In this document: positions 7,255 through 61,669 of the stretch, one piece after another
How the letters are laid out: each line of letters starts with the position of its first letter
Numbering within the stretch: the stretch's first letter is position 1
Origin: Christensenellales bacterium
Lineage (GTDB): Bacteria > Bacillota > Clostridia > Christensenellales > CAG-138
Length of the DNA: 64,000 bases
Direction of reading: 5' to 3'
Assembly: GCA_045114775.1 (NCBI GenBank)
Contig: JBGULC010000028.1
Span: 20,483 to 84,482, forward strand
The notes under the pieces: generated by a model
Told to the model about the DNA's origin: nothing
Seen by the model: only the letters and a program-made list of their open reading frames with translations
Databases searched by the model: none
Made by a program: the position numbers and the translations under genes

Positions 7255-7264
7255 GCTTTCCTCC

Positions 7265-7497
7265 AAAAATAAAATACTTCATCCTCATTTGAGGACGAAG
7301 CTTCTCCGCGGTACCACCTCAGTTGACAGGGTTCCCCCTGCCCGCTCATTGCCCCTTAACGCGGGGATACGGGAACGACTACTCTGTTCGCCGCTCCTCT
7401 CCCGGGTGATTTTCACGTCCGTTCCGCCGCCGCCTTGCACCAAACGCGGCTCGCTGTTGGTTTTCCGATACGTTACTCGTCCCGATCGACGATTTAC
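7265..7497 (-). promoter_or_regulatory. T-box leader of ileS (specifier AUC, Ile)
   Basis: The minus strand has GAAA-ATC-A (codon at 7408-7410) and the T-box motif AACTGAGGTGGTACCGCGGAG. Terminator CTTCGTCCTCA-AA-TGAGGATGAAG plus a T-run lies just before the RBS. Confidence 0.8.
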
Positions 7498-7503
7498 CGG
7501 GAT

Positions 7504-22356: not shown

Positions 22357-23793
22357 TCAATCATTTTTCAGGATCCAACTCTCGGTACGACATTCGCCGT
22401 TCTCATTACAGCCGAAGCATATCACGGTGCCGTCCGGCCGCAGCAGCGCAGCGTGCGTCGCACCGTTTGCGATTGCAAGGATCCCCGTGACCGGCTCATT
22501 CGGCAGAATCCGATCGTTCTCGCGAAACGCATACTCCATGACCGTCCCCTCCGCGTCCAGCGCCAGGATGCGTGTCGCACCTGCGGAAACCGCGACGATG
22601 TTTTCCCATGCGGGAAGCGCAACACCGTGGGACAGAAGCGTTCCGTCCGCTTTGAGTCCAAGCGAATATCCGATATGCACGGCGGCGGCGGTCAACCCCT
22701 CCCATTCCGGCGCCTTCGCCGAGGGCGAAACGGCAAGCAGCATCCCGTTCCGACGAACCGCGCAGACGGAATACCCTCCCGCTGCGATCGTCTTCAGATC
22801 CCGCGGCCAATCCTGTACCGCGGAATAATCGTGAAACCCGGTGAACAGGATGCGTCCGTCCCCGGTCAGCGCGATCGTATCGTAATATCCTGCGGCGACC
22901 GCGACGACGTCCCTCCAATCCGTTACCCTGCACTGGCCGTACCGGTCATCCCCCGCAGCGACCATCGTTCCGTCCGCTCTGAGTCCGACCGAGTGGTATG
23001 CACCAGCCGCAACAGCGATCAGATCGCTCCAATCGGACACGTCGCACTGGCCGTACGTGTTGTCGCCGACCGCGAGCGCGGTCCCATCCGCTGCAAGACC
23101 GAGTGTATGCGCAAATCCCGTCGCGAGCGGCGACAATTGCGCAGCGTGCTGCATACTGCTCAACCGTTCCTGTTTTCGGACGGTCTCGTCGTCCAGCCCG
23201 CGGGCAGTGCGCAGCGCGCGCTCGGCGTCGTCGATCCCGGTATATTCGATCGCAAGCGTCTCTGCTCGCTCCCTGCCCGCTTCGCTTCCGAGCGCAAGGA
23301 ACGCCTCAATTGCCTCGACCGTCTCCCCCGACTGCGCAAGCGCCTCCGCCATAGTGAATCGCGCTTCCTCATAATATCGGAAACTGTCTTTGTACCCGTC
23401 CAAAGCGCGCATTGCGTCAGCCGCCTCCGCATACCGTCCCGCTTCCATCAGACGCTCTGCCTCCCGGTAATCCAGTTCTCGCCGGAGCGTACGCGTCTCT
23501 TCCGTTTCGGCAAGCTCTGCAAGGATCGCCTCCGCAGCGGCGTCGTCTCCCGCGGCAACAGCTTCCGTCGCAAGTTCAAGCTGCGATCTCTGAAGCAACT
23601 CGGATCCGTCGTCCGATCGATCGGATTGCAGCAGTTCGGCTGCACGTTCATAATCGCCCGTTTCGAATGCCGACCGTGCGCAGCGCATGCGCAGGTCTTT
23701 CAGATGAAACAGAAACGTCGCGGCGCCGAAAAACAGCACAGCAGTCAGCGGCAGCGCGATGAGAAGGAACCGTTTATCGGATAATCTCTTCAT
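22357..23793 (-). CDS. membrane-anchored TPR-like + RCC1-repeat (beta-propeller) protein
   Basis: N-terminal TM (FLLIALPLTAVLFFGAATFLF). Repeated GDNTYGQCDVSDWSDLIAVAAGAYHSVGLRADGT and GDDRYGQCRVTDWRDVVAVAAG units. Start ATG 23793 behind GGAGG. Confidence 0.7.
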   Translation of the reverse strand: MKRLSDKRFLLIALPLTAVLFFGAATFLFHLKDLRMRCARSAFETGDYERAAELLQSDRSDDGSELLQRSQLELATEAVAAGDDAAAEAILAELAETEETRTLRRELDYREAERLMEAGRYAEAADAMRALDGYKDSFRYYEEARFTMAEALAQSGETVEAIEAFLALGSEAGRERAETLAIEYTGIDDAERALRTARGLDDETVRKQERLSSMQHAAQLSPLATGFAHTLGLAADGTALAVGDNTYGQCDVSDWSDLIAVAAGAYHSVGLRADGTMVAAGDDRYGQCRVTDWRDVVAVAAGYYDTIALTGDGRILFTGFHDYSAVQDWPRDLKTIAAGGYSVCAVRRNGMLLAVSPSAKAPEWEGLTAAAVHIGYSLGLKADGTLLSHGVALPAWENIVAVSAGATRILALDAEGTVMEYAFRENDRILPNEPVTGILAIANGATHAALLRPDGTVICFGCNENGECRTESWILKND

Positions 23794-23804
23794 AGCGGCC
23801 TCCC

Positions 23805-25229
23805 TCAGTGCAGATAGCGGACGACCTGCCCGCCAATGAAAAACTCGGAATTGATGCTGGTCGCAAGGCACAGTACAAAATAAACGTCGTCTACACCGTA
23901 TGCCTCGATGTACTCGCTCACGGATGCGCCGGCCTCCTCATGGCGGTACGAGGTAAATCGCAGATCCGTCATCATCACGCGGTCATAATGCAGCAGAAGA
24001 TACGGCAGGAAGGCATTGGAGAATGAATCTCCGATCAGCAGTGCCGTCCGTCCCGTTCTGGAACCTGTCTCAAACCGTCGCCACGGTGTTTTGGTGCCGC
24101 CGAGGAATGCGAGATAGTTGTTTGCGGAATAGTCCATGAACGGAATCTCTTTGCTTTTATCGAGATGCGAAACGATATAACTCTGTGTCGGCAGCAACTC
24201 GTGCATGACCTCGAGCGTGTCGCTTTTCACACCGGACTTGGCATTGTTTCCGCGCATCCCGTTCCGTACCGAATAGGTATAATCGCCGTAATCCGCTGGC
24301 GGTATCCCGAGCCGCTCCATCGCCGCGCGGTAGGCGTAATACGCTCCGCGCGCGGTCCAGTGATGATCGGTCCGGAAATAGACATATTCGCCGTTCTGCA
24401 GCGGCGCGTTCATCGCTTCCTCCGCTTTTACAACGATCACGCCGTCCTTCGTAAGGCTCTCCAGCTTCTCCTCAAGATCCGAGCGCCAGACCGGATTGCG
24501 GGAGAGCCGGTCAAGATAGGTATTGCCCATCGACGCCACCGGGACCTGCAGAAAAACGACATTCCCGTCCGGAGGCAGCGCATCGCGATACGCGTTCAGC
24601 ACATCGGCTGCATGATAGATGTTTTTTGCCGGAAAATCGAAGACCGTCTGCTGCGTCCCATCGCCGTACTCGATCCTGAACGAAGCGTCGCCGATTATCG
24701 GGAGCTCGGTCGGCGCCGGCGTCGGCGCTTCGGTCGGTTCCGGCGTCGTTCCCGGCAGCGGCGTTCCTGTTGCTTCGGCAATCGGCGACGGGCACGGTTC
24801 CGGCGTTTCGACAGGCTTTGCCGTCGGAGTTGGGTATTCTGTCGGGTGGAACGTTTCGGTCGGCGACGTTTTCGGAACGGGCTCAGCAGCTTGATTCGGT
24901 CCCGCGTTCATCTCCGCTTCGATTGCTTCGATCAGCGCTGCCGTTTCATCCTCTTCATTTTTCGGAACCGCAATCAACGATTCGACCGAACGCGACATCC
25001 CGATCAGCGTACCGCGCAGTGCAACGCCGTCTGAAAGCCATTCCTCGGTCTCCGTCATGAAAGAACCATCCAGGATCTTTTGTGCAGAAAGCGCCGGAGC
25101 AGCCGCAAGCATACGGTTTTCGTCCGTGCTGACGCGCGTCTCGCGCGGCGTACGCAGCAGCGTCATGCCGCCGAGCCAGACGAGCCCGAGCACCCAAAGA
25201 TATCGAACGATGAATCCGAACCGTTTCAT
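23805..25229 (-). CDS. DHHW-motif (AlgJ/AlgX-N-like) acyltransferase partner protein
   Basis: N-terminal TM, Pro/Thr linker, YFRTDHHWTARGAYYAY. Adjacent to the MBOAT gene. Confidence 0.75.
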   Translation of the reverse strand: MKRFGFIVRYLWVLGLVWLGGMTLLRTPRETRVSTDENRMLAAAPALSAQKILDGSFMTETEEWLSDGVALRGTLIGMSRSVESLIAVPKNEEDETAALIEAIEAEMNAGPNQAAEPVPKTSPTETFHPTEYPTPTAKPVETPEPCPSPIAEATGTPLPGTTPEPTEAPTPAPTELPIIGDASFRIEYGDGTQQTVFDFPAKNIYHAADVLNAYRDALPPDGNVVFLQVPVASMGNTYLDRLSRNPVWRSDLEEKLESLTKDGVIVVKAEEAMNAPLQNGEYVYFRTDHHWTARGAYYAYRAAMERLGIPPADYGDYTYSVRNGMRGNNAKSGVKSDTLEVMHELLPTQSYIVSHLDKSKEIPFMDYSANNYLAFLGGTKTPWRRFETGSRTGRTALLIGDSFSNAFLPYLLLHYDRVMMTDLRFTSYRHEEAGASVSEYIEAYGVDDVYFVLCLATSINSEFFIGGQVVRYLH

Positions 25230-25238
25230 ATTGCCGCC

Positions 25239-26648
25239 TCAGAACCGGAAATAGATAAAGGGATTATAGCTTTGTCCGACCAGAAAAGCGATCGAAAGCA
25301 CCAACAGCGCAGTCTCCAGGATCGGAACCGCAATACGCAAAGCCGCTTCACGCGCAGACCGCTTCTCCGCCCACGAACGGATGGCGGGCACGATCGGCAG
25401 GCAGCAGACGGCGGCGATCAACGGCAGAACCGTATTCTGCGAAAGAACAGCTGAAACGGTTGCGTCCGTCCCCGCGACGCCACCGATCCCGAACAGCGCC
25501 AGAATGTGCCGCCAGCCCTCAGCCAGCGACGTATGATAGAACAGGATCCAACCGACCATTGCGATCAAAAATGTGAGAAGGATCCTGATCGCCTTCGGAA
25601 TGTGTTCCAGAACGCTGCGCAGCGCAAACCGTTCCAGCAGAATCCAGAAGCCGTAGTATAGACCCCAGACCGCAAAATTCCAGCTTGCGCCGTGCCAAAG
25701 CCCTGTCAGAATCCAGACGATCAAAAGATTGCGGACCGTACGCAGCGTACCCTTCCGGTTGCCGCCGAGCGGAATGTATACATAATCCCGGAAAAAGCTG
25801 CCAAGCGAGATATGCCAGCGACGCCAGAACTCGGATACGCTCAAGGATACATAGGGATAACGAAAATTCTCACGATACGAAAATCCGAAGATGCGACCGA
25901 GTCCGATCGCCATGTCGGAATATGCGGAAAAATCGAAATAGATCTGAAAAGTATAGAACAGACCGGACAGCCACGCTCCGGCTACAGACAGCGCCGCGCC
26001 CTCCGGCAGAAGCGTTTCCACTGCCTTTCCGCACAGATTGGCGAGCAGGACCTTCTTGGCAAGGCCGACCGAAAAGCGGCCCAGACCTTCGGAAAAATCG
26101 GTCATCGTCGTCGTACGGGCGTCGAGCTGCGCTGCTATATCGGCGTACTGAACGATCGGTCCGGCAATCAACTGTGGAAAGCAGCTCACGTAGAGCAGAA
26201 GCTTCATCGGATTTCTCTGCACGGGAACCTTGCCGCGATAAACGTCGACGGTGTAAGTCAGGATTTGGAATGTGTAAAAGCTGATGCCGATCGGCAGCCG
26301 GACCTCCGGAACTGTGCCTGATATACCGAAAACAGAGTACACTGTCGAAAGAAAAAACGCCGCATACTTGAACCAAAAGAGCGCGCCGAGCGTCGCTGCC
26401 GTCCCCAATGCAAGATATGCCCGCTTCCCGTAGGCAGTTTTTGCACGGACGATCCCGAACGCTGCGCCGTAATTCATCAGCGTCGCGCCGAGCATGCACA
26501 GAATCCAGATCGGCTCCCCCCACGCATAGAACAGAAGCGAAAACAGCAGCAGAACCGCATTTCTCCACTTTAGGCCGCGGCCGACGAAATACAGTGTCAG
26601 CAACAGCGGCATGAAAAGCAGCAAAAATGTCAAGCTCGAAAATACCAC
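25239..26648 (-). CDS. MBOAT family O-acyltransferase (AlgI/DltB/PatA-like)
   Basis: 469-aa polytopic protein with FWRRWHISLGSFFRDYVYIPLGGNR and the conserved-His region LTGLWHGASWNF. Confidence 0.9.
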   Translation of the reverse strand: MVFSSLTFLLLFMPLLLTLYFVGRGLKWRNAVLLLFSLLFYAWGEPIWILCMLGATLMNYGAAFGIVRAKTAYGKRAYLALGTAATLGALFWFKYAAFFLSTVYSVFGISGTVPEVRLPIGISFYTFQILTYTVDVYRGKVPVQRNPMKLLLYVSCFPQLIAGPIVQYADIAAQLDARTTTMTDFSEGLGRFSVGLAKKVLLANLCGKAVETLLPEGAALSVAGAWLSGLFYTFQIYFDFSAYSDMAIGLGRIFGFSYRENFRYPYVSLSVSEFWRRWHISLGSFFRDYVYIPLGGNRKGTLRTVRNLLIVWILTGLWHGASWNFAVWGLYYGFWILLERFALRSVLEHIPKAIRILLTFLIAMVGWILFYHTSLAEGWRHILALFGIGGVAGTDATVSAVLSQNTVLPLIAAVCCLPIVPAIRSWAEKRSAREAALRIAVPILETALLVLSIAFLVGQSYNPFIYFRF

Positions 26649-26691
26649 GTTCGTCCTCCCAAGGCAGTTTCAGAAGACTTGCGGCAAGTCG

Positions 26692-27630
26692 TTACGGTTC
26701 GGTCAGATCCAGCGCTGCATTGGGGCACATCTGCTGCGCAGCATAGATGCGGGCGGCACAGGCCCAAATCTCATTTCCGGCGTCAGACAAATGAAGATGT
26801 CCTTTTGCGTATTCGGAGCGCAGATAACCGTTTTCATCCATCAACTCCCGCGCAAAGGTGAAAAAGCCCAGACCGTATTCCGCGCAGATCCCGCGCAAAA
26901 CGTCGTTGAAACTGTTCCAATGGTCGATGTCCAAATTTCTGTTGTCGCAAAACATTTTCGTGCCCGGATTGACGCCCTCCACGATGATCTCAACGCCGGG
27001 ACAATCCGCTTGGATCCGCTCGATCATTCTGCAGTAATCGGCACGCACCGTATCCCAATCGCGGCAGTATATATCATTTGCGCCAAGCATCAGAAACACC
27101 TTCGTCGCCTCATTGAGGTTGATGCCTTTTGTGAGAGCCACATGACCGCCGCGATAGGAAAACACGGCGTCCTTCGAGCTTGCCTGATAGACAGTCATCG
27201 AGACCTCGCCCATAAACTTTGCGCTGCCGAAAAATCCTTCATCCCGATTGCGCTGCGCCCGTACGTAGTTTCCAAACTCGCGCGTCATGGAATCTCCGAT
27301 AAACAGTGCGCCGTCGAAAAACGAATCGAACTCTCCCGAATCCAGCCTTGCGCGCGTGATAGGCTCAGGTGTCGGCTCTGCCGTCGGTTCCGGCGTCGGC
27401 TCCTCTGTCGGCACAGGTGTCGGTTCCGGCGTCGGCTCCTCTGTCGGCACAGGTGTCGGTTCATCAACCGGCTCGGGTGTCGATGCAGGCTCGGTCGTCG
27501 GGCACGCCGTAGGCACTTTCGTTTCGGTGGGTTTCTGTATTTGCACCGCATCGTCCGCTGTTTCCGGATTACAGCCGTATAGCCCGATCGCCAATAAAGC
27601 AGCTATGATAAAGCAAATGATCCGTTTCAT
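26692..27630 (-). CDS. SGNH/GDSL hydrolase lipoprotein
   Basis: Lipobox LAIGLYGC, Pro/Thr linker, FIGDSMT (block I Ser) and a C-terminal GHLHLSDAG (D-x-x-H-like). Start ATG 27630. Confidence 0.7.
   Translation of the reverse strand: MKRIICFIIAALLAIGLYGCNPETADDAVQIQKPTETKVPTACPTTEPASTPEPVDEPTPVPTEEPTPEPTPVPTEEPTPEPTAEPTPEPITRARLDSGEFDSFFDGALFIGDSMTREFGNYVRAQRNRDEGFFGSAKFMGEVSMTVYQASSKDAVFSYRGGHVALTKGINLNEATKVFLMLGANDIYCRDWDTVRADYCRMIERIQADCPGVEIIVEGVNPGTKMFCDNRNLDIDHWNSFNDVLRGICAEYGLGFFTFARELMDENGYLRSEYAKGHLHLSDAGNEIWACAARIYAAQQMCPNAALDLTEP
27386..27457. repeat. perfect 36-bp x2 tandem duplication inside the SGNH linker
   Basis: ggttccggcgtcggctcctctgtcggcacaggtgtc occurs at 27386-27421 and again at 27422-27457. 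It encodes PVPTEEPTPEPT twice. Confidence 0.9.
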
Positions 27631-27654
27631 ACGCGTTCCCCCCGATTCCCCTTC

Positions 27655-27682
27655 ATTATACCAAAATCGAGTGAAAAAGCAA
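27655..27682 (-). promoter_or_regulatory. candidate promoter of the SGNH-MBOAT-DHHW operon
   Basis: Minus strand: TTGCTT (27677-27682), 16 nt, TGgTATAAT (-10 at 27655-27660). Confidence 0.45.
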
Positions 27683-27834
27683 CCGTGATTTCCCTTTGCC
27701 TGCCTCGCTTGATATGAAATGATCCGGCAAGCCACGTATAAAAAGAAACATGCTCATGTTTGCAACGCGAACATTACAGGGGAAAGCTACCTTACAGCAA
27801 AGTCGTTTTCTCACCCCTCAGGGTAAACACTATT

Positions 27835-27867: not shown

Positions 27868-27944
27868 TGGTACCCCCTCAGGGATTCGAACCCTGGACAC
27901 CCTGATTAAGAGTCAGGTGCTCTAGCCAGCTGAGCTAAGGAGGC
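27868..27944 (-). tRNA. tRNA-Lys (anticodon CTT), CCA encoded
   Basis: Minus strand: GCCTCCTTAGCTCAGCTGGCTAGAGCACCTGACTCTTAATCAGGGTGTCCAGGGTTCGAATCCCTGAGGGGGTACCA. The cloverleaf folds by hand. The acceptor stem has G1-U72 and U4-G69 wobbles. Confidence 0.85.
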
Positions 27945-27948
27945 ATAT

Positions 27949-28024
27949 TGGAGCGGGAAACGGGGCTCGAACCCGCCACCTCAGCCTTGGCAAGGCTGCG
28001 CTCTACCAAATGAGCTATTCCCGC
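27949..28024 (-). tRNA. tRNA-Gly (anticodon GCC), CCA encoded
   Basis: Minus strand: GCGGGAATAGCTCATTTGGTAGAGCGCAGCCTTGCCAAGGCTGAGGTGGCGGGTTCGAGCCCCGTTTCCCGCTCCA. Confidence 0.9.
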
Positions 28025-29955: not shown

Positions 29956-30146
29956 AACCCTCTCCTGTTGTTTTGATACTGTTCATTGTACCGTATCCGC
30001 GTTCCCGCGTCAATCGTGAATGTTCGCAGGAGAATCGATCATAAAACTCCGAATTTTCCTCTGAACGCAACAGATCCATCGCCCTGTAGGGAGATGGATC
30101 TGTTTCACGATTTTTAAGCGCAATCCCAATGGTTGGGATCGGTTTT

Positions 30147-32039
30147 TTATTTCACTGTGAACGTGCCTGCGGAAGAATTCACACTGCCGAATTCGTTCGA
30201 TACTACACAACGGTATTGACGTCCATTCAAATTGCTTGCGGCTTTAAAGGTGAATGTCGCAGTATTATAACCGCCGGACTTGCAGTTCGACCATGTCGAA
30301 CCGTTTGTGCTGTACTGCCACTGATAGGTCAGGCCTTCGCCCCAAGCGACCACCGTGAAAGTTACGTCGTTTCCGACAGCAGCGGAAACATTCTTCGGAT
30401 TTGTGAGAATTACCGGCTTTGCATCGGAAACCGTAAGTCTGACGCTCTTGGATGTAACGGTTCCGTTCGCATTCGTGATCACGCAGCGGTACATGCAGCC
30501 GTTATTCGTTGCGCTTGCAACAACCGAAAGATTCGTACGCGTTCTGCCGCTCCACGCCGTCCACGTCGCGCCGTTGTTCTTGCTATACTCCCACTGATAG
30601 GTCAGATCGGAGCCGCCCGCCGCTACTTTGAACACCGCACTCTCGCCCAATGCGACCGTTGCATTCTTCGGCTGCGTCAGGATCGTCGGCTTCAGATCGG
30701 AAACCGTCAGCCTAGCATTCTTTGTGGTGACGCTGCCGTATTCATTCGAAACGACACAGCGATACATGCAACCATTGTTCGTCTCGCTCGCCTTTAAAGT
30801 GAGCGTCGCCTTGGTCTTGCCGCTCCAGGTGACCCAGGAGGTACCGTTGGTCTTACTGTACTCCCACTGATAGGTGATGGTTCCTTCACCGTCCGCAACG
30901 ACCTTGAAGGTCACGCTCGTGCCCACCGTAACGGTCACGCTCTTCGGATGGGTCAGGATCGACGGTCTGTTGTCGATCTGCGTCAGGCTGGCATTTTTCG
31001 AAGTGACTGAGCCGTAGTCATTGGAAACAACACAGCGATACAGGCAGCCGTTATTTGTCGTGCTTGCCGCTACTGTGGCCTGTGCCTTCGTCTTTCCGCT
31101 CCAGTTGTACCACGTTGCACCATTGTTTTTGCTGTACTGCCACTGATACTTCAGACCGACACCAGCCGCAACGACTTTGAAGGTCACACTGTCGCCCAAT
31201 GCAACTTCCACGCTGACCGGATGCACCAGAATGTTCGGCTTAACGCCGTCCACTGTCAGCCTTGCATTCTTTGTGGTAACGCTGCCGCAGGAGTTGCTCA
31301 CGACGCAACGGTACAGGCAGCCGTTGTTCGATTCGCTCGCCTTGACCGATAAGGTATCCTTGGTCTTACCGCTCCAGGTGACCCAGGAAGCGCCGTTGTC
31401 CTTGCTGTATTCCCACTGATACTGCAATCCGCCGCCGGTTGCAACGACCTTGAACTTGACGTTCGTGCCGACCTGTATGGTCTCGTTCGAAGGCTGCTCA
31501 ACGATTACCGGCATTGTCTCCAGCTCCGACAGGATAAACGGTGCAAAGCTCTGCGCAACGGAATGATGCGTCACGACATATACATCGTCCACAAACGTTT
31601 CGGCATCAGCGCCTTCGGAAAGTGCGAAAGCAATTTCCGTCCCTGCTTCCATATCATTTGCCAGTTCAAAATACAGTGTGGCGACTTTGATCGTTTCCGA
31701 AACCGCAACGCCTTCCGACGCAAACGAAAAACGGAGAATTCCGGGCACTGTATCATTTAACATCGAGCCGTTGAAAGCCTCGCCTGCGTCCATACGTACA
31801 AATGTCAGCTGCGCAGCTTCATACGTCAGATCGAAGGTCAGCGCAAGAAGCGTATCTTCGACCGTACCGTTCAGATTGACGTCAACCGCAAGAAGGTTCT
31901 TATTATCCTCCGTGATCAGGTGCTCGCCCACATCGCCGCCAGCAATCAAAAGTGTGAAATCTTCGCCGTCTGCAAATGCAGCCGAGACAGGCGCAACCAC
32001 CATTAACAGCGAAAGGAGCATTGCCAACAGTTTCTTCAT
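30147..32039 (-). CDS. secreted cohesin-like domain protein with five Ig (I-set-like) repeats
   Basis: Signal peptide MKKLLAMLLSLLMVVAPVSAAFA. The N-terminal ~150 aa shows a cohesin-like pattern (LTFDLTYEAAQLTF...GILRFSFAS...ATLYFEL). It is followed by 5 repeats of ~91 aa containing YQWEYSKNNGxSW...NNGCxYRCVVSN. Start ATG 32039 behind AGGAGG. Confidence 0.65.
   Translation of the reverse strand: MKKLLAMLLSLLMVVAPVSAAFADGEDFTLLIAGGDVGEHLITEDNKNLLAVDVNLNGTVEDTLLALTFDLTYEAAQLTFVRMDAGEAFNGSMLNDTVPGILRFSFASEGVAVSETIKVATLYFELANDMEAGTEIAFALSEGADAETFVDDVYVVTHHSVAQSFAPFILSELETMPVIVEQPSNETIQVGTNVKFKVVATGGGLQYQWEYSKDNGASWVTWSGKTKDTLSVKASESNNGCLYRCVVSNSCGSVTTKNARLTVDGVKPNILVHPVSVEVALGDSVTFKVVAAGVGLKYQWQYSKNNGATWYNWSGKTKAQATVAASTTNNGCLYRCVVSNDYGSVTSKNASLTQIDNRPSILTHPKSVTVTVGTSVTFKVVADGEGTITYQWEYSKTNGTSWVTWSGKTKATLTLKASETNNGCMYRCVVSNEYGSVTTKNARLTVSDLKPTILTQPKNATVALGESAVFKVAAGGSDLTYQWEYSKNNGATWTAWSGRTRTNLSVVASATNNGCMYRCVITNANGTVTSKSVRLTVSDAKPVILTNPKNVSAAVGNDVTFTVVAWGEGLTYQWQYSTNGSTWSNCKSGGYNTATFTFKAASNLNGRQYRCVVSNEFGSVNSSAGTFTVK
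30150..31511 (-). repeat. five tandem ~273-bp Ig-module coding repeats
   Basis: The periodicity is also visible as recurring 80-aa antisense ORFs ending in LLYSH at 30355, 30628 and 31177. Confidence 0.85.
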
Positions 32040-32235
32040 TGATTCTATCCTCCTGCTAAAATGTCCGGATCGTACAGACAAGTCATCGAATTATCGATCA
32101 AACGGTTACGCTGTAACGATTCCTTCTCTATAACGATCACCGTGCGCATATCTGTTCACAGTATCGTCATAATTTCTGATATATCATATCATACTCTTTC
32201 TGTTTTTGCAAGCATTCTGTAAAAAAAGATACGGT

Positions 32236-34032
32236 TTATTCTCTACTCCGGAATGGAATCCTTATGCCTGTTTTTTCAATTCTCCAAGATGCCATATCAC
32301 CTTTCATACCGATCCCGATGCTGCGAAAAAAACTTTCGGGCAGGTCCTTTGAACGCATTATGTTAAGCAGCGCGGCATCGGACGTTGCACTTCCCGCTTC
32401 ATTTTCCACTATGCAGCGATACTGCCTTCCGTTGAAATTGCCTGCCGCCGTAAAGGCAAATGCCGTTTTGTCATATCCTGCCGACTTACAGTAAACCCAT
32501 GTTTTACCGTTGTCGCTGCTGTACTGCCATCGGTACTGCAGCTCTGTGCCTACAGCCAATATCCGAAACTCTGCCGTGTCCCCAACGGAAACAGTCACAT
32601 TCTCCGGCTGTTCCGCGATCATGGGTGCAGCGCCGGAAACCGTCAACCTGGCAGCAGCCGACACCACCGAGCCGTAACTGTTTGTGATTCTGCAGCGATA
32701 TAGGCAGCCGTTGTTTGTACTGCTTCCCTTGACAGTAATACTTGTATTCGTCTTCCCCGACCACTTGACCCACGAGTCGCCGTTATTTCTGCTGTACTCC
32801 CATTGGTACTGCAAACCGGTTCCTCCGGCGACCGCAGTGAATGTCGCACACTTGCCCATATCTGCAGCCGCATCGGTCGGACTGCAAAGAAGCATAGGCT
32901 TCGCATTCGAAGCCGTCAGCCTCGCAGGCTCGCTCACGACGCTCCCGTATGCATTGGAAACCGTGCAGCGGTACAGACATCCGTTATTCGTATTGCTTGC
33001 CGTGACCGAAACGGACGCCTTTTCCCTGCCGTTCCAAACGGTCCAGCTCTCACCGTTGTTTTTGCTGTACTCCCACTGGTAATGCAATCCGGCGCCGCCC
33101 GCCGCAATCTTGAATGTGACTTCCTTTCCGAGCGCTGCAGAAACGTTTTTGGGCTGCATCAGCATTGTCGGCTTGCTGTTGGTCGTCGTCAGCCTCGCCG
33201 CTTTCGACACTTGCTTACCGATCGCAAACGTCACGATGCAGCGATACATACAGCCGTTGTTCGTTTCACTTGCCTTAACCGTAAGACTGTCATTCGTTTT
33301 CCCGCTCCACTTGACCCAGGAAGTTCCGTTATTCTTGCTGTACTCCCACTGATAACCCGCTGCGCCGACCGCGACGACCCGAAAAGTCGCCGTCTTCCCC
33401 AAGGCTGCACGAGCTGCGGTCGGATGCTCAGTGATCCGCGGCATGGCGTCGTCTATCACGTAAGCCGAAATATCCGTAGAAACCGATCGGCGCGTATAGG
33501 TTCCGTACCCGGTCTGATCGCTGCGTTTGACAGATTCCGCTTCAATATCGCCGTCGATCGAAACAGTCAGCTCCGTTCCGGTTGCAGCTTCCCGATCTAT
33601 GCGAAAATAAAAGGAAATCAAAGGCATACCGTCTTTGATGCGGCAGCCGTAATCGGTTGCAAAGAATACTCCGATTCTTCCGTTCCCGGAATTGTTTGCG
33701 TTGATCAGCAGCGTTCGTGTCCCGACATTTTGTCCGGATGCGTTCACTGCATATAGAGAACTCCCGCCGAGCGACTGCGAATCGGTCACGTATTCGAGCT
33801 GTTCCGGGTCAAACCCGAGTTCAAATGAAAGCGCTGTCAAAAGCTTACTGTCACTTACACCGTTCAAATACAGATCGACCTTCAGCGCTATTGCGTCGTC
33901 GATCTCCGCAAGGAATGCGCTTGCATTCCCGCCGGGAACCTTCAGTGTGAAGTCAGCTCCGGATGCCTCCGCTGCCGGAAGCAGTGAGAAAAGAAGAATC
34001 CAGATCAGGATCGCTGCAAGCGTTTTTTTCAT
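32236..34032 (-). CDS. secreted cohesin-like domain protein with four Ig (I-set-like) repeats (paralog)
   Basis: Signal peptide MKKTLAAILIWILLFSLLPAAEA. Cohesin-like N-domain (LSFELGFDPEQLEY...GRIGVFFAT...ISFYFRI). Four Ig repeats and a 40-aa unrelated tail. Start ATG 34032 behind AAGGAG. Confidence 0.65.
   Translation of the reverse strand: MKKTLAAILIWILLFSLLPAAEASGADFTLKVPGGNASAFLAEIDDAIALKVDLYLNGVSDSKLLTALSFELGFDPEQLEYVTDSQSLGGSSLYAVNASGQNVGTRTLLINANNSGNGRIGVFFATDYGCRIKDGMPLISFYFRIDREAATGTELTVSIDGDIEAESVKRSDQTGYGTYTRRSVSTDISAYVIDDAMPRITEHPTAARAALGKTATFRVVAVGAAGYQWEYSKNNGTSWVKWSGKTNDSLTVKASETNNGCMYRCIVTFAIGKQVSKAARLTTTNSKPTMLMQPKNVSAALGKEVTFKIAAGGAGLHYQWEYSKNNGESWTVWNGREKASVSVTASNTNNGCLYRCTVSNAYGSVVSEPARLTASNAKPMLLCSPTDAAADMGKCATFTAVAGGTGLQYQWEYSRNNGDSWVKWSGKTNTSITVKGSSTNNGCLYRCRITNSYGSVVSAAARLTVSGAAPMIAEQPENVTVSVGDTAEFRILAVGTELQYRWQYSSDNGKTWVYCKSAGYDKTAFAFTAAGNFNGRQYRCIVENEAGSATSDAALLNIMRSKDLPESFFRSIGIGMKGDMASWRIEKTGIRIPFRSRE
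32359..33444 (-). repeat. four tandem ~272-bp Ig-module coding repeats
   Basis: Same module as in 30150..31511. An antisense ...LLYSH ORF recurs at 32684 and 33110. Confidence 0.85.
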
Positions 34033-34171
34033 CAAGGTCAACTCCTTTTCCCCGGCAAACAGCGTCCGCCGACTGTACATAATTTCATATATTGCATTAT
34101 ATCATAGGATCCAATCGGATACAAGGAATTTCTTGCACGCGGGGCAAAAGAACGTCTGTGCCAGGTACAAG

Positions 34172-34228: not shown

Positions 34229-35443
34229 TTACCCAAGTCTGCCCTTATATTCGTAAAGTACGTCCTCATACCTTACATCGTCCAGCCATTTACTCCACAG
34301 CATACCGCGATAGGTCGCGATTGCTTTCTCACGGACGCCGGAATACCAGTCTATATCGATGATGCCGGATTCGCCATTTACGCACATATCGCCGTTTGCG
34401 CGACGAAACAAATATGCTGTGACCGTCGTATTGCCGTCGTCGTCGGTCACCGCCTGCCCGACAAAGGAATCGATCTCACCGACCTGAAGCGCAGTCGCTT
34501 TCGTGTAAACCATCTGTGGAGTGAACAGTTCCGAATGATCCGTTTCACCGATTGCATACGGTGTTTTCAGCGTGCCGCGAAACGGATCCGCATTCTCCTC
34601 CGAGTTCATGAGCTCGTCGAAATCGACTTTGCCTTCTTTGACCTTAAGAACGATTTCCTCTGCCTCCTCCGTCGATGCGGTGACGATCTCGATATAATCG
34701 ATAAAAATGAACCCCTCCGGCACGTAAAGCATCGGCGAATACGTCCCGGTTTGGAATCCTTTCAGATAATACCAGAACATGCCCGGCGTATAAACGGAAG
34801 TCTTCGTGCCGTCGTCAGATTCGGTGTACATCGACTGCTCGACGCTCTCACGATAGTACCGCTGCAGCGTTTCCTCATCGGGCGTGACGTTCTCGGCGTA
34901 ATACTGCTCAAGTTTTGTTCTGTAAAGCTCCGATTCTTCGCCCATGACGATCAGATCGCGGAGCTCCTCCTTCTGCATACCGAGGTTCTGATAATAGGTC
35001 GATACCAACAGGATATATGCCTGATCCGTATAATTGCCGGATTCGGTCAGTTGTGCGTGATACTGTTCCTCAACGCCGTCGACATATTCCTGCGCCGACT
35101 TCAGGCATGTCGCCTTCTCTTCCGCGGTCAGTACAATGCCGCGCGCCTGCGCCTCCTTGATGTAAATCTTCTGCAGCAGGACCTGTCTTGCAATGCTCTC
35201 CTGCAGCGCACGAAGGGTTTCTTCGCTCAGCTTGCTGTTTCCGTAATAACTGGCGAACATCTCAAATGTCGCCCGGTATTCCTTCATGGTAATCTGCACA
35301 CCGTCCGCGCTTGCCGCAATGACTTCCGTCTGTTCGTCCGCTTTTGCGGGCGGCTCCGTCGGAATGCAGCCTGCAAAGGCCGATGCAGCCAAAAGGATTG
35401 TCATAAGCACGGCGATCCCCGCCGTATGCCTTTTTTTCATCAT
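34229..35443 (-). CDS. PrsA/SurA-like foldase lipoprotein (SurA-N-like + degenerate parvulin region)
   Basis: Lipobox LLAASAFAGC. The YRATFEMFASYYG...ARQVLLQKIYIKEAQARGIVLTAEEK pattern matches SurA/PrsA N-domains. A later IEIVTASTEEAEEIVLKVKEGKVDFDELM resembles a parvulin start. Start ATG 35443. Confidence 0.55.
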   Translation of the reverse strand: MMKKRHTAGIAVLMTILLAASAFAGCIPTEPPAKADEQTEVIAASADGVQITMKEYRATFEMFASYYGNSKLSEETLRALQESIARQVLLQKIYIKEAQARGIVLTAEEKATCLKSAQEYVDGVEEQYHAQLTESGNYTDQAYILLVSTYYQNLGMQKEELRDLIVMGEESELYRTKLEQYYAENVTPDEETLQRYYRESVEQSMYTESDDGTKTSVYTPGMFWYYLKGFQTGTYSPMLYVPEGFIFIDYIEIVTASTEEAEEIVLKVKEGKVDFDELMNSEENADPFRGTLKTPYAIGETDHSELFTPQMVYTKATALQVGEIDSFVGQAVTDDDGNTTVTAYLFRRANGDMCVNGESGIIDIDWYSGVREKAIATYRGMLWSKWLDDVRYEDVLYEYKGRLG

Positions 35444-35592: not shown

Positions 35593-35685
35593 TCAGGTTG
35601 CCAGACCGATGACCGCACCGACCACGCCGAGCAGCATCAATCCCGCAAGGATCCAACATACGATCCGGATCGTGCGTTGTTTCAT
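35593..35685 (-). CDS. candidate 30-aa hydrophobic peptide, ATGA-coupled to the upstream gene
   Basis: MKQRTIRIVCWILAGLMLLGVVGAVIGLAT. Its ATG overlaps the TGA of 35682..36947. GGAGGA lies 5 nt upstream, and the terminator starts ~10 nt after its stop. It is too short for the ORF track. Confidence 0.3.
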   Translation of the reverse strand: MKQRTIRIVCWILAGLMLLGVVGAVIGLAT

Positions 35686-36947
35686 CCGAGTCCTCCCTTA
35701 TAGTTGTAGATTGCGTCCTCATACTTGATGTCAGACAGCCAATCGTTCTGAAGGTCATTGAATTTTTCCGAGACGAACTCAGTCTTGACGGTCTCACGGA
35801 AATCAACGAAATAATCCATATCGATGATCCGCGCTTCCTTGTCCATAAAGATGCTTTCGCCGTCCGCGCGACGGAAAACGTACACTGTATAACTCTTCGT
35901 GCCGTCTTCGGCGGTCTTTTCATCGACAAAAGCGCCCATTGCGCCGATCTCAAGTTCAGCAGCCTTTGCATAGACCTCGTCCGATTCAAACAATTCCTTG
36001 TGATCCTTTTCCGCGATCGGATAGGGTCCGTTCAGTTTGTTCGCAAAGGGATCCTTGTTGTCCTCGGAGTTCTGAAGCTCTTCGAAATTAAGCTCACTCG
36101 AATTGATCTTATCAATGACCTCGTTGGCTTCTTCGGCCGTATTCTTCTCAAGCTGGACGAAATCAATGAAAATAAATCCTTCGGGCAGGTATAACATCGG
36201 TACATCGGCGTTAGTCCGGAACTTTTCAAGATACTCCCAGACCTGGCCGTCCGTGTACTTAAGTTCCTTTGTGCCATCCGCTTTCTCGTTGTACATCGCC
36301 GCCTCAGCCGCATCACGATAATACTTCTGAAGAGTCTCTTCGTCCGGCGTGTTTTTCTCCGTAAAAAGATCGCTGTATTTCTTCGCGTATAACTCCGCTT
36401 CCTCGCTCATCTGTATGAAATCCATATACTGGTTTCGATTCATGCCGAGATTCTTATAATACTCGGCTATCTGCTTGTCAAATTGCGTTTTTGAATACGA
36501 ACCCTGCTCGACCATCTGGTTCTTGAGCTGATTTTCCGTGGACTCGACGTACTCTTTTGCAGACTTTTCGCATTCCGCGATTTCATCTTTCGTCAGAGTG
36601 ATGCCCTGTGCCTTTGCCTCTTTGATGAAAATCTTCTGCAAAAGACCCTGCTTTGCAGAACTCTCCTGAAGCAACTTCATGGAATCGCCGGTTACCGTGA
36701 CTCCATAATACTTATAGATCTGTGCCTGTGAATCGAACGCCACGCGATACTCGCCCATGGTGACTTTCTCACCATCCGCCGTTGCCGCAGTCGCTTTTCT
36801 CTGGAAGCAGTTCATGCCTGCGCTGTCCTTCTGCAGTGTGACGCTCAGAAAGATCGCTGCTGCGATTACCAGTGCGACGAGAACGCCGATCAGAATGTTG
36901 CGGGTCAGTTTCTTCTTGCCTTGTTGGCTCATTGTCTTTTTGCTCAT
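35682..36947 (-). CDS. PrsA/SurA-like foldase, membrane-anchored (paralog of 34229..35443)
   Basis: N-terminal TM (ILIGVLVALVIAAAIFLSV). YRVAFDSQAQIYKYYG...AKQGLLQKIFIKEAKAQGITLTKDE. Colinear with the paralog through to the ...YNYKGGLG end. Confidence 0.55.
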   Translation of the reverse strand: MSKKTMSQQGKKKLTRNILIGVLVALVIAAAIFLSVTLQKDSAGMNCFQRKATAATADGEKVTMGEYRVAFDSQAQIYKYYGVTVTGDSMKLLQESSAKQGLLQKIFIKEAKAQGITLTKDEIAECEKSAKEYVESTENQLKNQMVEQGSYSKTQFDKQIAEYYKNLGMNRNQYMDFIQMSEEAELYAKKYSDLFTEKNTPDEETLQKYYRDAAEAAMYNEKADGTKELKYTDGQVWEYLEKFRTNADVPMLYLPEGFIFIDFVQLEKNTAEEANEVIDKINSSELNFEELQNSEDNKDPFANKLNGPYPIAEKDHKELFESDEVYAKAAELEIGAMGAFVDEKTAEDGTKSYTVYVFRRADGESIFMDKEARIIDMDYFVDFRETVKTEFVSEKFNDLQNDWLSDIKYEDAIYNYKGGLG

Positions 36948-40119: not shown

Positions 40120-43100
40120 TTATGCAGCGTCCGTCAGCTTCAGCTTTTTGACTTTCTTCAGCGCGATCGCGTTGACGATGACCGTGAATACGATCGTCAT
40201 CAGCGCGCCGATCGCCCATGCGAAGATCGACGGATGGCGGTCAAACTGTACATAGCTCTGCTCCAGCGAGCGTACGATCTTATAGCCGATGCCTGCACCG
40301 AGTCCGATGCCGAGCAAAATACCTACTGCAGTCGTGACGACCGTTTCGCGCAGAACGTAGCCGATGACCTCCCGGACCGTAAAACCGTTGATTCGCATGA
40401 TCGTCAGCTCCGGCAGCTTCTGCATGATATAGATATTCGTCAGGTTCATCAGCACGACGCCTGCCATGACCGCCGCCATGAAGATGAACAGCAGCACGAC
40501 CATGTTCATCACGCTGGTCGCCGTTTCAAACAGCGTTTTAAAGGAATCGGAATGCGTGTAGCTCTCATACCCCTCGATCGTGCCGAGCTTTTCGAGCAGC
40601 GGATCGAGCTCCGTACCGTCGAGCCGGATCAAAAATGCGTTCGTTTCCGGATTGTGTCCGAACAAGTTCCGAAAGCAGGCGTCGCTCATGTACATCGTTC
40701 TTTCGGTATAAACATTGAAGATGCCTGCGATTTTCGTGTGCGCCGTCTCCGAGCCGTTCAGGATGATCTCTATCGGATCGCCTGCCTTGACGTTATAGTT
40801 TTCGGAAAACCGCTTTGAGACCAGTACGCCCTCCTCGGTCGGTGGAATCGGTTCGCCGGTTTTGATGTCGGCAATGCGTATCATCTCGTTGATCGCGGAA
40901 AGATCTCCGACGTACAGCTCCTGCATATCGAGGTCCTTGATGTGCACGGTCACGTTCTTCCTGAGAACGGGACAGCTCTTTGCGCCTGCGTCCTTCAGGA
41001 TCCGTGCGACGGTATCCGGTGCATCGGCGTTCGTTTCGGGATCGAGCGACACCATGCCGTCATAATGGATGATCTCGCTGAGCTGCAGTTTCAGCGCATT
41101 GCTGACCGCGTTTCGGAGCGTGATGCCGATAACGACCAGCGCGCAGCAGCCCGCGACACTGACGATCGTAACGAGCACGCGGCGAAAATCCGTACGCATA
41201 TTCAGAAGAATAAGGCGCGAATACAGCGACAGCGCGGACCGTTTGCCGGACGCCGCTTTGTTCCTGCCCTTCGGAACCGACTGCTGCATCAGCCTGATCG
41301 CCGGTGTGCGCAGCAGCTTTGCGCATGCAAACCAAATGGAGAAAAATGCCAAAGCAACGCCTGCGAAAAACACGATCGCCGTCGGAAGCACAGCCATTGC
41401 CGGTTTTCTCAGATCGAAATCGAAATAGAGGTTATAGCCGTTGGTGATGAAGCTCTGAATCCAGAACCGCGCGATCAGCAGACCGATCACACAGCCGAGC
41501 AGTGTTGCCGAGATCCCGAACAGCAGGTATTTCGCGAAAATCTCACGGTTGAAGAAGCCAAGCGCCTTCGTCGTCCCGATCTGCCTGCGCTGTTCGTCTA
41601 CCATCTTGCTGATCGTTGCATAGATGACAAGCGCGCCGACCAGAACGAACAGAAGCGCAAAGGTCATTTCCATGCTCTTCAAGTTGTCCGCAGCGGTCCC
41701 GAGCTGCACAAAACCGACGTTCCCGAAGCCGTCCATCACGATCCAGTTGCATGGACCGAGTGCGTCGGCACGTTTTTGCGCCTCTGCGAGCGCTTCCCGG
41801 CCTTCACTGTACTGTTTCAGTCCGTCCGCATAATCCCGTTCGCCATCCTCAAGCTTGATACGCGCATCATCGAGTTCCCGGCGGCCGTTTTCAAGGTCGA
41901 TAAGCCCCTGCGCGTACTGTGCTTCCCCGTCGTTGTACTGCCGAAGTCCGTCCTCATATTGCGCAAGTCCCTCGGCGTACCGCGCCTCGCCCTCCTGATA
42001 CAGCTTAAGCGCGCTCTCGTATTTTGCAAGTCCGTTGCGGTACTGTTTGAGTCCCGAAAGATAGGTCCCGTGTCCGTTGTCCCACTTGGTGCATCCGTCG
42101 GCGAGCGCGTCGTACTGCGATTGATACTCGCCCGCGAGCGACGCAACGCGGTCGGCAAGGAGTTTCCGTGCAACTTCCGGATCGTAATCACCCTCGCCGC
42201 CGAACTGTTCGAACGCTTTGCGCAGTACGCGGTCCGGAATCTGCACTGTGTGCATGAGCTGATCGATCTTGTCGGACAACGATGAGCCGAGATTGATTTT
42301 GAAATTGTCCGTAATCCAAAAATCGCTTGCGGAAACGCCGGAACTGTTCGGATTCGCCTGCTTCGGCTTCGCCCAGGCAATCCACTGGGAAGAATCCTCA
42401 CCGATAATGTCATCAAGCCCGGTATGCAGCTTGTTCCGAATCTGCGTCTTGGCATTCTCGATCGTGTTCCAACCGGAAACGAGCTGCCGTTTTGCCGAAT
42501 CGAGTTTCGTTTCCGTCTCCTGAAGCTGCGACTCGCCCGTTTCAAGCTCAGCTTTTGCCGTGTCGAGCTCCGCGCGGCTGTTCTGAAGCTGCTGTTCGGC
42601 ATTCGCAAGCTGCTGCTTGACTTCGTCCAGCTGTTTCCGTGCGTCTTCGAGCTTTTTTTTGCCTTCCTCGTAGTCCCGCTCGCCCTCCGCAAGCTGTTTT
42701 TTGCCGTCGTCGAGCTCCGCACGCCCGTTTTTGAGCTTCACTTCGGCTTCGTCAAGCGTTCGGCGGTTCTCGTCGATTATCGTCTGCGCCTGTGCCTTGA
42801 CCGATTCCTCGCGGCGCGGCGCTAAGGTCTTTGCTGCCGTTTCCATCCGTTCGCGTACCTCGACCGACGCCGTCCGGTATTCGGCCTCAAATCGGTTCAG
42901 GTCGATCGTACGGTCTGCCATGATCAAAGCCTTCATAAAGCAGCCGTCCAGCGCATCCTCATCGAACGCCGCGGGCGTTACGATGATGTATTGCGTTTCC
43001 GGAATGCTGTTGCAGACATGATCCGGATGCAGAACTGCGCCGCATATGGAAAACGAATCGGTTCTGAGGTACTGCGGCGTCGCGCCTTCGGCGCTCGCGA

Positions 43101-43548: not shown

Positions 43549-43554
43549 AACGGA

Positions 43555-44775: not shown

Positions 44776-44885
44776 GGTTCCGGTCTCCTTTATTGTCAAA
44801 TGGTCGTTTCAATTTTGTGCGGTCCGATGAAAAGCGCACCGCAGTCCGAAAAGGGCGCTCTAAGGTCGTGAAGGACCGGTTCGCA

Positions 44886-60090: not shown

Positions 60091-60124
60091 GCTCGTCTTC
60101 CGTCCTTTTCAGTGTGATAAGAAT

Positions 60125-60171
60125 CTGAATATAAGAATTCGGTTCCGCATGAACCTTCATGCAGAACCGAA
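60125..60171 (-). terminator. orphaned native terminator of the rubrerythrin gene
   Basis: Minus strand: TTCGGTTCTGCATGAA-GG-TTCATGCGGAACCGAA (16-bp stem, one G-U) followed by TTCTTATATTC. It begins 18 nt after the stop of the displaced rbr fragment. Confidence 0.55.
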
Positions 60172-60188
60172 CGATCCAATGCTGCTTC

Positions 60189-60254
60189 TTATTTGAAGTA
60201 TCTCTCCAGGAGACCCTTCAGCGCCTTGCCGTGTCTTGCCTCGTCGCGCGCCAT
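60189..60254 (-). pseudogene. displaced native 3' end of the rubrerythrin gene (attL-side repeat)
   Basis: The minus strand translates to [21 protein letters not shown], identical to the C-terminus of 63118..63663. Homology stops exactly at the Met codon (upstream reads ...RSNQ). Confidence 0.75.
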
Positions 60255-60446
60255 TTGATTGCTTCGCACTGCTTGCAATCAAGGGGGGATGCTTCAAAAC
60301 GCGAACAGCACAACAAAGGACTTCCTTGATATAAGTTTAGCACATCTCCAAACAAATGTCCACATCTCTTGGACAACTTATGTTCAAGAAATCTCATCTT
60401 TGTTACAATAAAAGCCACACTTTGGACAACAAAGGAGGTTTTTTCT

Positions 60447-61661: not shown

Positions 61662-61669
61662 TGCAGAAA

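Follow-up and report, generated by a model that had tools for sequence, protein, structure and literature searches.

What do two neighboring genes encode whose products each seem to join a cohesin to a series of immunoglobulin (Ig)-like repeats, and how did the pair arise? The question is raised by a stretch of 64,000 nucleotides from a Christensenellales bacterium (assembly GCA_045114775.1, contig JBGULC010000028.1), hereafter the window, in which genes A and B follow each other on the reverse strand, the strand of all the features described below unless another is given. Gene A (32236..34032) encodes 598 residues, made up of a signal peptide, an A-type cohesin, four Ig repeats and a 38-residue tail; gene B (30147..32039) encodes 630 residues, with a signal peptide, a B-type cohesin and five Ig repeats. 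An original prediction made from the sequence alone had proposed this pair, and the list of open reading frames (ORFs), the sequence and Pfam bear it out: each protein has a signal peptide, an N-terminal domain of about 150-170 residues and repeats of 91 residues (four in A, five in B). The answer developed here is that the N-terminal domains are cohesins, that the genes are old paralogues and that their products are, by a modest preference on our part, Sec-secreted single-cohesin display or adaptor proteins with putative dockerin binding. NCBIfam has no meaningful family for either protein.

The cohesin assignment is most direct for gene B. Its domain (31515..31970, residues 24-175) scores 24.1 bits within the whole protein and 28.9 bits in isolation against Pfam Cohesin (PF00963), and so passes the curated cut-off of 24.1 bits. 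A word-index homologue search with the isolated domain gave no match, and phmmer with the same query recovered only 31 relatives from 1.84 billion representative proteins (E ≤ 1e-3), which implies that this cohesin family is small. A family alignment of 29 sequences served for both profile searches and structure prediction. Most of its members (25 of 29) individually match Pfam Cohesin (E < 0.01) and, when the family profile was compared with all PDB sequences, every match at E < 0.05 was a cohesin, including A. cellulolyticus ScaB Coh6 (5nrm, 5nrk; 1.4e-6), C. perfringens NagJ (3e-5) and C. cellulolyticum CipC. AlphaFold2 modeled the B domain with a pLDDT of 94.4 and a pTM of 0.89, and the fold predicted in this model is the nine-strand beta-sandwich of cohesins. 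A Foldseek search of the PDB with the model returned cohesins for all of the best 50 matches (probability 1.0, TM 0.5-0.74), drawn from type I, type II, R. flavefaciens, C. perfringens and archaeal representatives at 10-18% identity.

The domain of gene A (33448..33963, residues 24-195) is distinguished by an insertion of about 20 residues (AVNASGQNVGTRTLLINANN) and a DYGC motif. It remains below the Pfam cut-off, with 17.2 bits in the whole protein and 19.9 bits in isolation. Nevertheless, it matches a family profile built without any A-type sequence over its full length and with 84.6 bits (E 3e-28), and it is therefore a homologue of the cohesin family carrying an insertion of about 20 residues. 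Its nearest relatives are P0148 (44% identity), P0152 (47%) and the A-type gene of the related locus L090 (54%). The predicted cohesin-like nature of the N-terminal domains is thus upheld for both proteins: they are cohesins, by Pfam, the profile comparison with the PDB and the AlphaFold2 model followed by Foldseek in the case of B, and by profile homology in the case of A.

The modules that follow this type of cohesin in other proteins are diverse. They include choline-binding cell-wall repeats (P0130, P0140, P0141), fn3-like modules (P0129, P0131, P0132, P0136, P0148), a domain without known family (P0133, P0153) and, directly after the same cohesin type, Dockerin_1 (P0134, P0137-P0139, P0142, P0143, P0145, P0151). 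The slot after the cohesin often holds an attachment module in this family. The cohesin-Dockerin_1 members often sit behind an Endonuclease_1 domain and a Pro/Thr linker, and the dockerin of P0134 reaches 35.7 bits (Dockerin_1). Since these relatives are fused to Dockerin_1, the cohesin family belongs to lineages that use cohesin-dockerin pairing. The Endonuclease_1-cohesin-Dockerin_1 proteins (P0134, P0137-P0139), which come without genomic context, are nucleases that would be secreted and could both dock and be docked; proteins of this type are candidate partners for proteins such as A and B.

The rest of each protein is dominated by the repeats. Gene A has four of them (A1-A4; 32353..33447, residues 196-560), three of a W-type and a terminal one of a C-type; gene B has five (B1-B5; 30150..31514, residues 176-630), four W-type and a terminal C-type. 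The W-type is defined by the pattern ..W..WSGKT..NNGC.YRC and the C-type by ..W..C.S.GY...F.F.A...NG[RW].YRC. Regular expressions and alignment set the unit at 91 residues or 273 nt, so that the predicted number of nine units is right and the predicted length of about 272 bp is corrected. Pfam I-set (PF07679) matches four stretches of A with 66 bits and five stretches of B with 103.5 bits, far above the cut-offs, and Pfam Ig_3 (PF13927) matches every repeat (59.8 bits in A, 115 bits in B). A profile of the nine repeats has as its best PDB match chain S of 9c2d/9c3a (E 1.4e-31). This chain is gp20, a Hoc-like protein that decorates the capsid of the Shigella phage Sf14 and has three Ig-like domains, largely predicted rather than resolved in that entry (PMC11821841). 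The profile also matches two entries whose deposited names are "Immunoglobulin-like domain protein" (9ncf) and "Ig-like domain-containing protein" (9d7z). Eukaryotic I-set domains come next, first those of Robo1 and titin (about 1e-14) and then those of LRIG1, LAR and the contactins. The I-set-like character that had been proposed for the repeats is supported by these matches.

Describing the repeats as "eukaryote-style" was, however, an overstatement. They belong to a widespread bacterial/phage Ig_3 family with at least 855 matches. The strand-C Trp (YQW) and the strand-F Y-x-C are invariant among them, but the position of the strand-B Cys is taken by Val, Ala or Ile (FKVVA aligned to FKCEA of Robo1). 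The I-set signature put forward for them holds in its second half only: Y-x-C-x-x-x-N is kept, whereas in the hidden Markov model (HMM) alignment to Robo1 D-x-G-x-Y-x-C reads N-G-C-x-Y-R-C, with Asp replaced by Asn, Gly replaced by Cys and a Gly one residue earlier. The canonical eukaryotic Ig core, with its strand-B Cys pairing and exact D-x-G-x-Y-x-C, is consequently absent from the repeats. Compared with the phage Ig repeats, seven extra residues lie between strands C and C' and create an Asp-box, S-x-[DN]-x-G-x-[ST]-W. The motif is present in eight of the nine repeats (B5 is one residue shorter), and in A4 it brings a match to Pfam BNR (PF02012) at residues 503-512 of A (YSSDNGKTW; 30.5 bits for a cut-off of 27 bits). 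Single Asp-boxes are known from Ig-like sandwiches, where they usually support domain-domain contacts (PMC2716378). Judged from these profile and motif matches, the repeats are I-set/Ig_3 domains of the bacterial/phage type with an Asp-box.

The units are 38-70% identical to each other in amino acids and 48-71% in nucleotides, and the longest exact nucleotide match between any two of them is 20 nt. Tandem Repeats Finder reports no array over the genes because the copies are too diverged. Such identities and short exact matches imply that the repeats are old and poor substrates for recombination, contrary to what had been suggested for them, and the only other strain available, whose gene B is 98% identical, has the same five repeats.

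A full-length search with B returned at least 855 proteins, mostly from metagenome-assembled genomes (MAGs) of rumen and gut Oscillospiraceae, Lachnospiraceae and other Clostridia, as well as from Bacteroidota; those that are named are annotated "immunoglobulin domain-containing protein" or "leucine-rich repeat protein". Among 126 repeat proteins that were retrieved, the last repeat ends within 10 residues of the C-terminus in 108, behind heads as varied as LRR_5, LRR_4/8, peptidase C14, Endonuclease_1, CAP, PKD and others. An LPXTG motif at the place of a C-terminal anchor is absent from all 126; LPxT[GAN] matches only three times, each time inside the last Ig repeat. Surface proteins of rumen and gut Clostridia very commonly end in this Asp-box Ig array, a module whose function has not been characterised. 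Viral contigs hold only distant relatives of the repeat (26-30% identity), and a phage origin of the repeat, which was considered, is not supported by them.

The last repeat of A and B is indeed, as had been noticed, a distinct subtype common to both, the C-type (W..C.S.GY...F.F.A...NGRQYRC). The conclusion drawn from it, a duplication of the whole gene, does not follow. Of the 126 proteins, 20 contain a C-type repeat, which comes last in 16 of them, and the orders WWWC and WWC also occur behind LRR_5 and peptidase C14 heads. The array of A is 56% identical to that of the leucine-rich repeat protein P0010 and 52% to that of B, while the WWWC part of the B array is 62% identical to P0010. As the same arrangement stands behind unrelated heads, the shared terminal C-type is a property of a shuffled cassette.

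Gene B stops one residue past its last repeat, an abrupt end that is typical among the repeat proteins. Gene A is atypical in its 38-residue tail (32239..32352; RSKDLPESFF...RSRE; 43% GC), which has no Pfam match and which the original prediction had already seen, at about 40 residues. That prediction had reported neither dockerin, LPXTG, SLH nor another known anchor; the same result was obtained here, and A and B likewise lack carbohydrate-binding modules (CBMs), transmembrane segments and cell-wall-binding repeats.

The history of the pair can be followed by comparison with related loci, which share the order CotJABC - PRC - NrdR - Cu-oxidase_4 - SurA_N - cohesin gene(s) - carboxylesterase. 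Three of them (L078, L079, L080) each combine a single SurA_N gene with a single B-type cohesin-Ig gene of four repeats. The window has two SurA_N genes followed by A and then B. In locus L090 (7998-11084; contig JAEEGG010002603.1), a single SurA_N gene is followed by two cohesin genes, A-type before B-type as in the window, and in both of these an fn3-like C-terminal module (…GYVIYRRAWN…) replaces the Ig repeats. Beyond the carboxylesterase, L078 has genes for an integrase, a Fic protein and a type III restriction-modification methylase. Cohesins of the same type are 54% (A-type) and 59% (B-type) identical across genomes, compared with 28-33% across types. Since each type is orthologous across genomes and the pair has the same order and locus in L090, the duplication of the cohesins predates these genomes. 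Gene B is the positional orthologue of the single cohesin-Ig gene of the relatives; it is 47-49% identical to that of L078 and L079, to which A is 37-39% identical. The two C-terminal modules of L090 are 50% identical to each other. Both genes underwent an exchange of their C-terminal module in one lineage, and paralogues within a genome carry the same kind of module. By these comparisons A and B are old paralogues with mosaic histories.

The two genes lie, together with the SurA_N genes S1 and S2, in an island of about 7 kb (approximately 30.1-37.0 kb) with 48-53% GC and 60-64% GC at third codon positions (GC3), whereas the flanking genes have 60-61% GC and a GC3 of 78%. A and B themselves are at 53.1% GC, which agrees with the lower GC content than the neighbors that had been estimated by hand. 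The identity between genomes is 88-92% for Cu-oxidase_4 and 80-84% for the carboxylesterase and falls to 42-47% for SurA_N; the closest database homologs of IleS are 91-95% identical. The nearest named IleS matches come from MAGs labeled "Clostridia" or "Eubacteriales", at 70-78% identity, and put the organism no more precisely than in an uncultured lineage of Clostridia/Eubacteriales. A comparison of gene B between two strains (30147-32039 versus 142-2034 of L094) gave 13 nonsynonymous and 4 synonymous differences, that is, a ratio of nonsynonymous to synonymous rates (dN/dS) of about 1.0, estimated from these 17 differences only. Half of the 12 amino-acid changes between the strains fall in the cohesin, with a cluster near its end in which DVY becomes NAA (residues 152-154), and the five repeats are unchanged. 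Only 2 of 301 positions of flanking non-coding DNA differ. This part of the window bears the marks of a surface-protein island that evolves fast or is often replaced, set between conserved housekeeping flanks, and diversifying selection may act on it.

The two SurA_N paralogues of the island are S1 (34229-35443), upstream of gene A and with a lipobox-like AFAGC signal, and S2 (35682-36947), with an N-terminal membrane anchor. They are 43% identical and share the low GC3 of A and B. Their first 140 residues or so match Pfam SurA_N and the remaining 260 or so have neither a Pfam nor a PDB relative; by sequence, the SurA_N neighbors have no relative in the PDB. The co-location and co-variation of S1 and S2 with A and B suggest that a functional link may exist between them. 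SurA_N as a general partner of genes with Ig arrays was considered and rejected, as it occurs only in the syntenic loci and is absent from the other 76 Ig loci.

How might A and B work? According to the reading that we modestly favor, a Sec-secreted single-cohesin display or adaptor protein, the signal peptide would be removed after export and the N-terminal cohesin would serve as a socket for a dockerin-bearing partner. If a length of about 4 nm is assumed for each Ig domain, the four or five of them would form a rod of roughly 15-20 nm, in which the Asp-box hairpin between strands C and C' might stiffen or decorate each domain. The rod would act as spacer and as point of attachment at once, keeping the cohesin on the surface of the producer or on an external one, and the A-type and B-type pair would probably provide two different partner specificities. 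The envelope of the producer seems the likelier site of attachment, both because sister proteins have cell-wall-binding repeats or a dockerin at this position and because the same Ig array ends many adhesin- or enzyme-headed proteins that have no other anchor. The array is the only candidate anchor in A and B. This anchoring detail deserves far less confidence than the cohesin-adaptor reading itself.

Several observations weigh against this account. No dockerin was found by regular expression or HMM in the 64-kb window, in loci L077-L080 and L090 or in about 1.3 Mb of related loci, the HMM being a custom one built from eight dockerins of the family and run with --max. The cohesin of gene A does not reach the Pfam cut-off, and the Ig fold of the repeats rests on sequence evidence. 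The cell-surface anchor or CBM of scaffoldins has no counterpart in A and B; binding of the cell wall by the Ig rod is proposed by analogy with the sister proteins, and Ig arrays of the phage Hoc type have been discussed as binding external targets (PMC11821841). The extra tail of gene A is not accounted for by the model. As for the island, the evidence for module swapping comes from a single contrasting genome (L090) and from database proteins without genomic context, and the dN/dS is derived from few differences.

One alternative is that A and B are secreted adaptors or adhesins that stay free, with an Ig array that binds some outside target (host mucin glycans, plant fiber or other microbes, for example), as has been proposed for phage Ig proteins of the Hoc-like kind, and a cohesin that recruits dockerin-tagged enzymes there. 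The Hoc-like phage decoration proteins that are the closest PDB sequences to the repeats (PMC11821841), the lack of a recognisable cell-wall anchor and the origin of the relatives from rumen and gut metagenomes would all fit. Yet the same array ends proteins with adhesin-like heads (LRR_5/BspA) or enzymes that would need retention, the C-terminal slot of the cohesin family is filled elsewhere by choline-binding repeats or a dockerin, and the viral relatives of the repeat are distant. On balance we consider free adaptors unlikely.

Another possibility is that the N-terminal domain has the cohesin beta-sandwich and no longer binds dockerin, serving for instance as a carbohydrate- or protein-binding adhesin head, in which case A and B would be two variable adhesins. 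This could explain why the window and the syntenic and related loci searched yielded no dockerin, and it has precedents, since non-cellulosomal cohesin-like domains without known partners are widespread, for example TMEM132 with no detectable dockerins (PMC6030884). The identity to solved cohesins is also only 10-18%. The fusion of close family members to a bona fide Dockerin_1 (P0134) nevertheless indicates a lineage with an active cohesin-dockerin system, and a conserved and divergent pair of cohesins is what two specificities would be expected to look like. A loss of dockerin binding is quite improbable in our opinion.

The last alternative, that A and B are recent tandem duplicates of a whole gene whose nine repeats drive ongoing recombination and copy-number variation, could appeal to their common architecture, adjacency, co-orientation and terminal repeat subtype and to the three, four or five repeats of orthologues in other species (P0055/P0063; P0015/P0016/P0019; B), but it is hardly tenable and, as to the recent duplication, is already contradicted by the data: the cohesins are about 27% identical (26-28%) and the whole proteins 40%, A-type and B-type cohesins are each orthologous across genomes, the Ig arrays (52% identical between A and B) are at least as similar to those of proteins with unrelated heads within a family-wide Wn-C cassette, and the divergence of the repeats, the silence of Tandem Repeats Finder and the identical repeat number of two strains speak against ongoing recombination.

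The cohesin-adaptor reading can be extended in a bolder way, which we hold to be speculative and on the whole doubtful. The Asp-box Ig array, and especially its terminal C-type repeat, would be a module for non-covalent attachment to surfaces, hitherto undescribed, in uncultured Clostridia of gut and rumen; the A/B pair would be a two-socket, strain-variable platform of non-cellulosomal cohesin-dockerin display; its stalk or anchor would be swapped as a cassette (Ig versus fn3-like) under diversifying selection; and the co-varying SurA_N proteins would be dedicated helpers of export or folding.

Export of both proteins by the Sec pathway is predicted from their N-termini, with cleavage sites read by eye from the translations. 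The signal peptide of A (33964..34032, residues 1-23) is MKKTLAAILIWILLFSLLPAAEA, followed by SG, with an AxA site (cleavage between AEA and SG); that of B (31971..32039, residues 1-23) is MKKLLAMLLSLLMVVAPVSAAFA, followed by DG (cleavage between AFA and DG, also an AxA site). Neither has a lipobox. Shine-Dalgarno sequences precede both starts (GGAG in A, AGGAGG in B). The public record of gene A, P0017 (614 aa), is identical to the long ORF of the gene and starts at 34080, which adds the N-terminus MYSRRTLFAGEKELTL-MKK… (34033-34080, reverse strand). Given the Shine-Dalgarno sequence and the MKK that opens the signal peptide, the true start is probably the ATG at 34032, which would make the deposited start 16 codons too early and the protein 16 residues too long. 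The exact protein of gene B is on record as P0121, and that of the second strain as P0001 (98% identical).

Both promoter strings that had been proposed exist. That of gene B (TTGCAA-17-TATGAT with a TG extension; 32183..32211) was listed by the promoter scan, whereas the putative one of gene A (TTGTAT-17-TATAAT with a TG extension; 34096..34124), which was read from the sequence, has a perfect extended -10 and escaped the scan because its -35 agrees with the consensus at only three of six positions. The -35 of A is thus weak and, in the region as a whole, promoter-like matches are not above chance (6 found, 3.6 ± 1.9 expected). An alignment of upstream regions of the B-type genes (32040-32211 of the window, reverse strand; 9830-10000 of L078; 3996-4166 of L079; 9450-9647 of L090) indicates that the promoter of gene B is conserved in four loci (the window, L078, L079/L080 and L090); that of gene A is not conserved in L090. 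The 5' leader of gene B is about 137 nt long (32040..32176) and contains a predicted hairpin. The promoter and the first 45 nt or so of the leader are nearly invariant across the four loci, whereas the coding sequences are only 47-59% identical. RNAalifold places 28 pairs in the hairpin, 3 of them with compensatory changes, in an alignment of only four sequences, and Rfam gave no match in or around A and B, either at the gathering threshold or at E ≤ 1. The leader may be an mRNA-stabilising or regulatory element, a lead rather than a finding. The public pipeline also called a 34-residue ORF (MRTVIVIEKESLQRNRL…; 32045-32149, reverse strand) immediately before gene B, overlapping the ribosome-binding site of that gene; L078 and L079 lack the start codon of this ORF, which is probably spurious. 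After gene B, a weak candidate for a terminator hairpin was read from the sequence (30071..30102; CAGATCCATC-12 nt-GATGGATCTG, then TTGCGTT), which the scan did not list because the loop is above its limit.

Among characterised systems, A and B resemble the single-cohesin anchoring scaffoldins of cellulosomes or amylosomes, namely OlpA/OlpC of C. thermocellum (3ul4, 4dh2), ScaE/ScaC of R. flavefaciens (5lxv) and the Sca proteins of R. bromii, which are also secreted and have one N-terminal cohesin. The model of the B domain superposes on the cohesins of anchoring scaffoldins with a TM of 0.6-0.74, and the family profile matches cellulosomal cohesins. OlpA/OlpC and ScaE-type proteins end in SLH modules or a sortase signal, while A and B end in an I-set Ig array without known anchor; moreover, the window shows no cellulolytic sign and the partner dockerin is putative. 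The cohesin-dockerin pairs of C. perfringens glycoside hydrolases, with the cohesin of NagJ (2jh2, 2o4e, 2ozn), are comparable in that a non-cellulosomal cohesin assembles secreted proteins, but the NagJ cohesin is one internal module of a large enzyme, whereas the cohesin of A and B is their only non-Ig domain and is accompanied by no enzyme.

The repeats, for their part, are of the same Ig family (PxIxxQP...YQW...G.Y.C.V.N..GSVTS..A.LTV) as those of the Hoc-like phage decoration proteins, gp20 of Sf14 and T4 Hoc (PMC11821841). They differ by the seven-residue Asp-box insertion and the Cys at the canonical Gly, and the phage proteins attach through a capsid-binding domain. The BspA-like LRR_5 proteins and other Ig-domain proteins from rumen and gut MAGs of Oscillospiraceae and other Clostridia (P0010, P0030, P0020) have the same C-terminal array, WWWC included, at 56-62% identity, and end after the last repeat, but their head is a leucine-rich repeat, a peptidase, a nuclease or another domain instead of a cohesin. 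The order of domains in A and B recalls TMEM132/coherin of holozoans, in which a cohesin homologue is followed by three Ig-type BIG domains (PMC6030884). However, TMEM132 is a eukaryotic transmembrane protein with Big_2-type Ig domains, and the likeness is one of architecture, with no common descent implied other than that of the domain families. Neither domain family is new, and proteins of this kind already carry an Ig-domain label in databases; the combination of a cohesin with Asp-box Ig repeats, the conserved A/B pair and the cassette exchange were not found in a limited literature search.

The remaining features of the window place the island in its genomic setting. CotJ and SpoIIE genes point to a spore-forming lineage of Clostridia. 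A role in the spore coat, suggested by the nearby cotJ genes, was rejected for A and B as they carry Sec signal peptides. Adjacent genes for tRNA-Lys(CTT) and tRNA-Gly(GCC) lie between the carboxylesterase gene and a GDSL-lipase gene (27868-28024, reverse strand). The three products of a cluster at 23805-27735 (reverse strand) are an SGNH protein of the DHHW/AlgX-like kind, an MBOAT O-acyltransferase and a GDSL-like lipase. This cluster resembles systems for the O-acylation of extracellular polymers and may bear on the surface chemistry near the cohesin island. An ORF with RCC1 repeats (PF13540, 100 bits) is found at 22357-23871 (reverse strand). Farther away, a T-box leader (Rfam RF00230, 119.5 bits; 7288-7498, reverse strand) lies directly upstream of the isoleucine-tRNA ligase gene (4144-7266) and, at 40120-44799 (reverse strand), a 1142-residue FtsX-type permease adjoins an ABC ATPase with an N-terminal GAF domain, an unusual fusion. 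The GC content falls to 41-49% at 60-63 kb (60000-63700), where a gene of the phage-integrase family is encoded on the forward strand (60369-61661); this low-GC stretch probably marks the boundary of a mobile element.

The familiar settings of cohesin-dockerin pairing are cellulosomes and amylosomes; what it does in uncultured gut Clostridia that are not fibrolytic has hardly been explored. A single cohesin borne by an Ig rod is a compact architecture that differs from the characterised scaffoldins, and the locus is a clear example of the exchange of C-terminal modules en bloc in a hypervariable surface island. The very divergent and yet conserved cohesins of A and B would be obvious candidates for a pair of orthogonal docking specificities and are of interest for protein engineering. 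These genes do not overturn the current understanding of cohesins; their value is that of a defined and testable entry point into cohesin-dockerin display in these bacteria.

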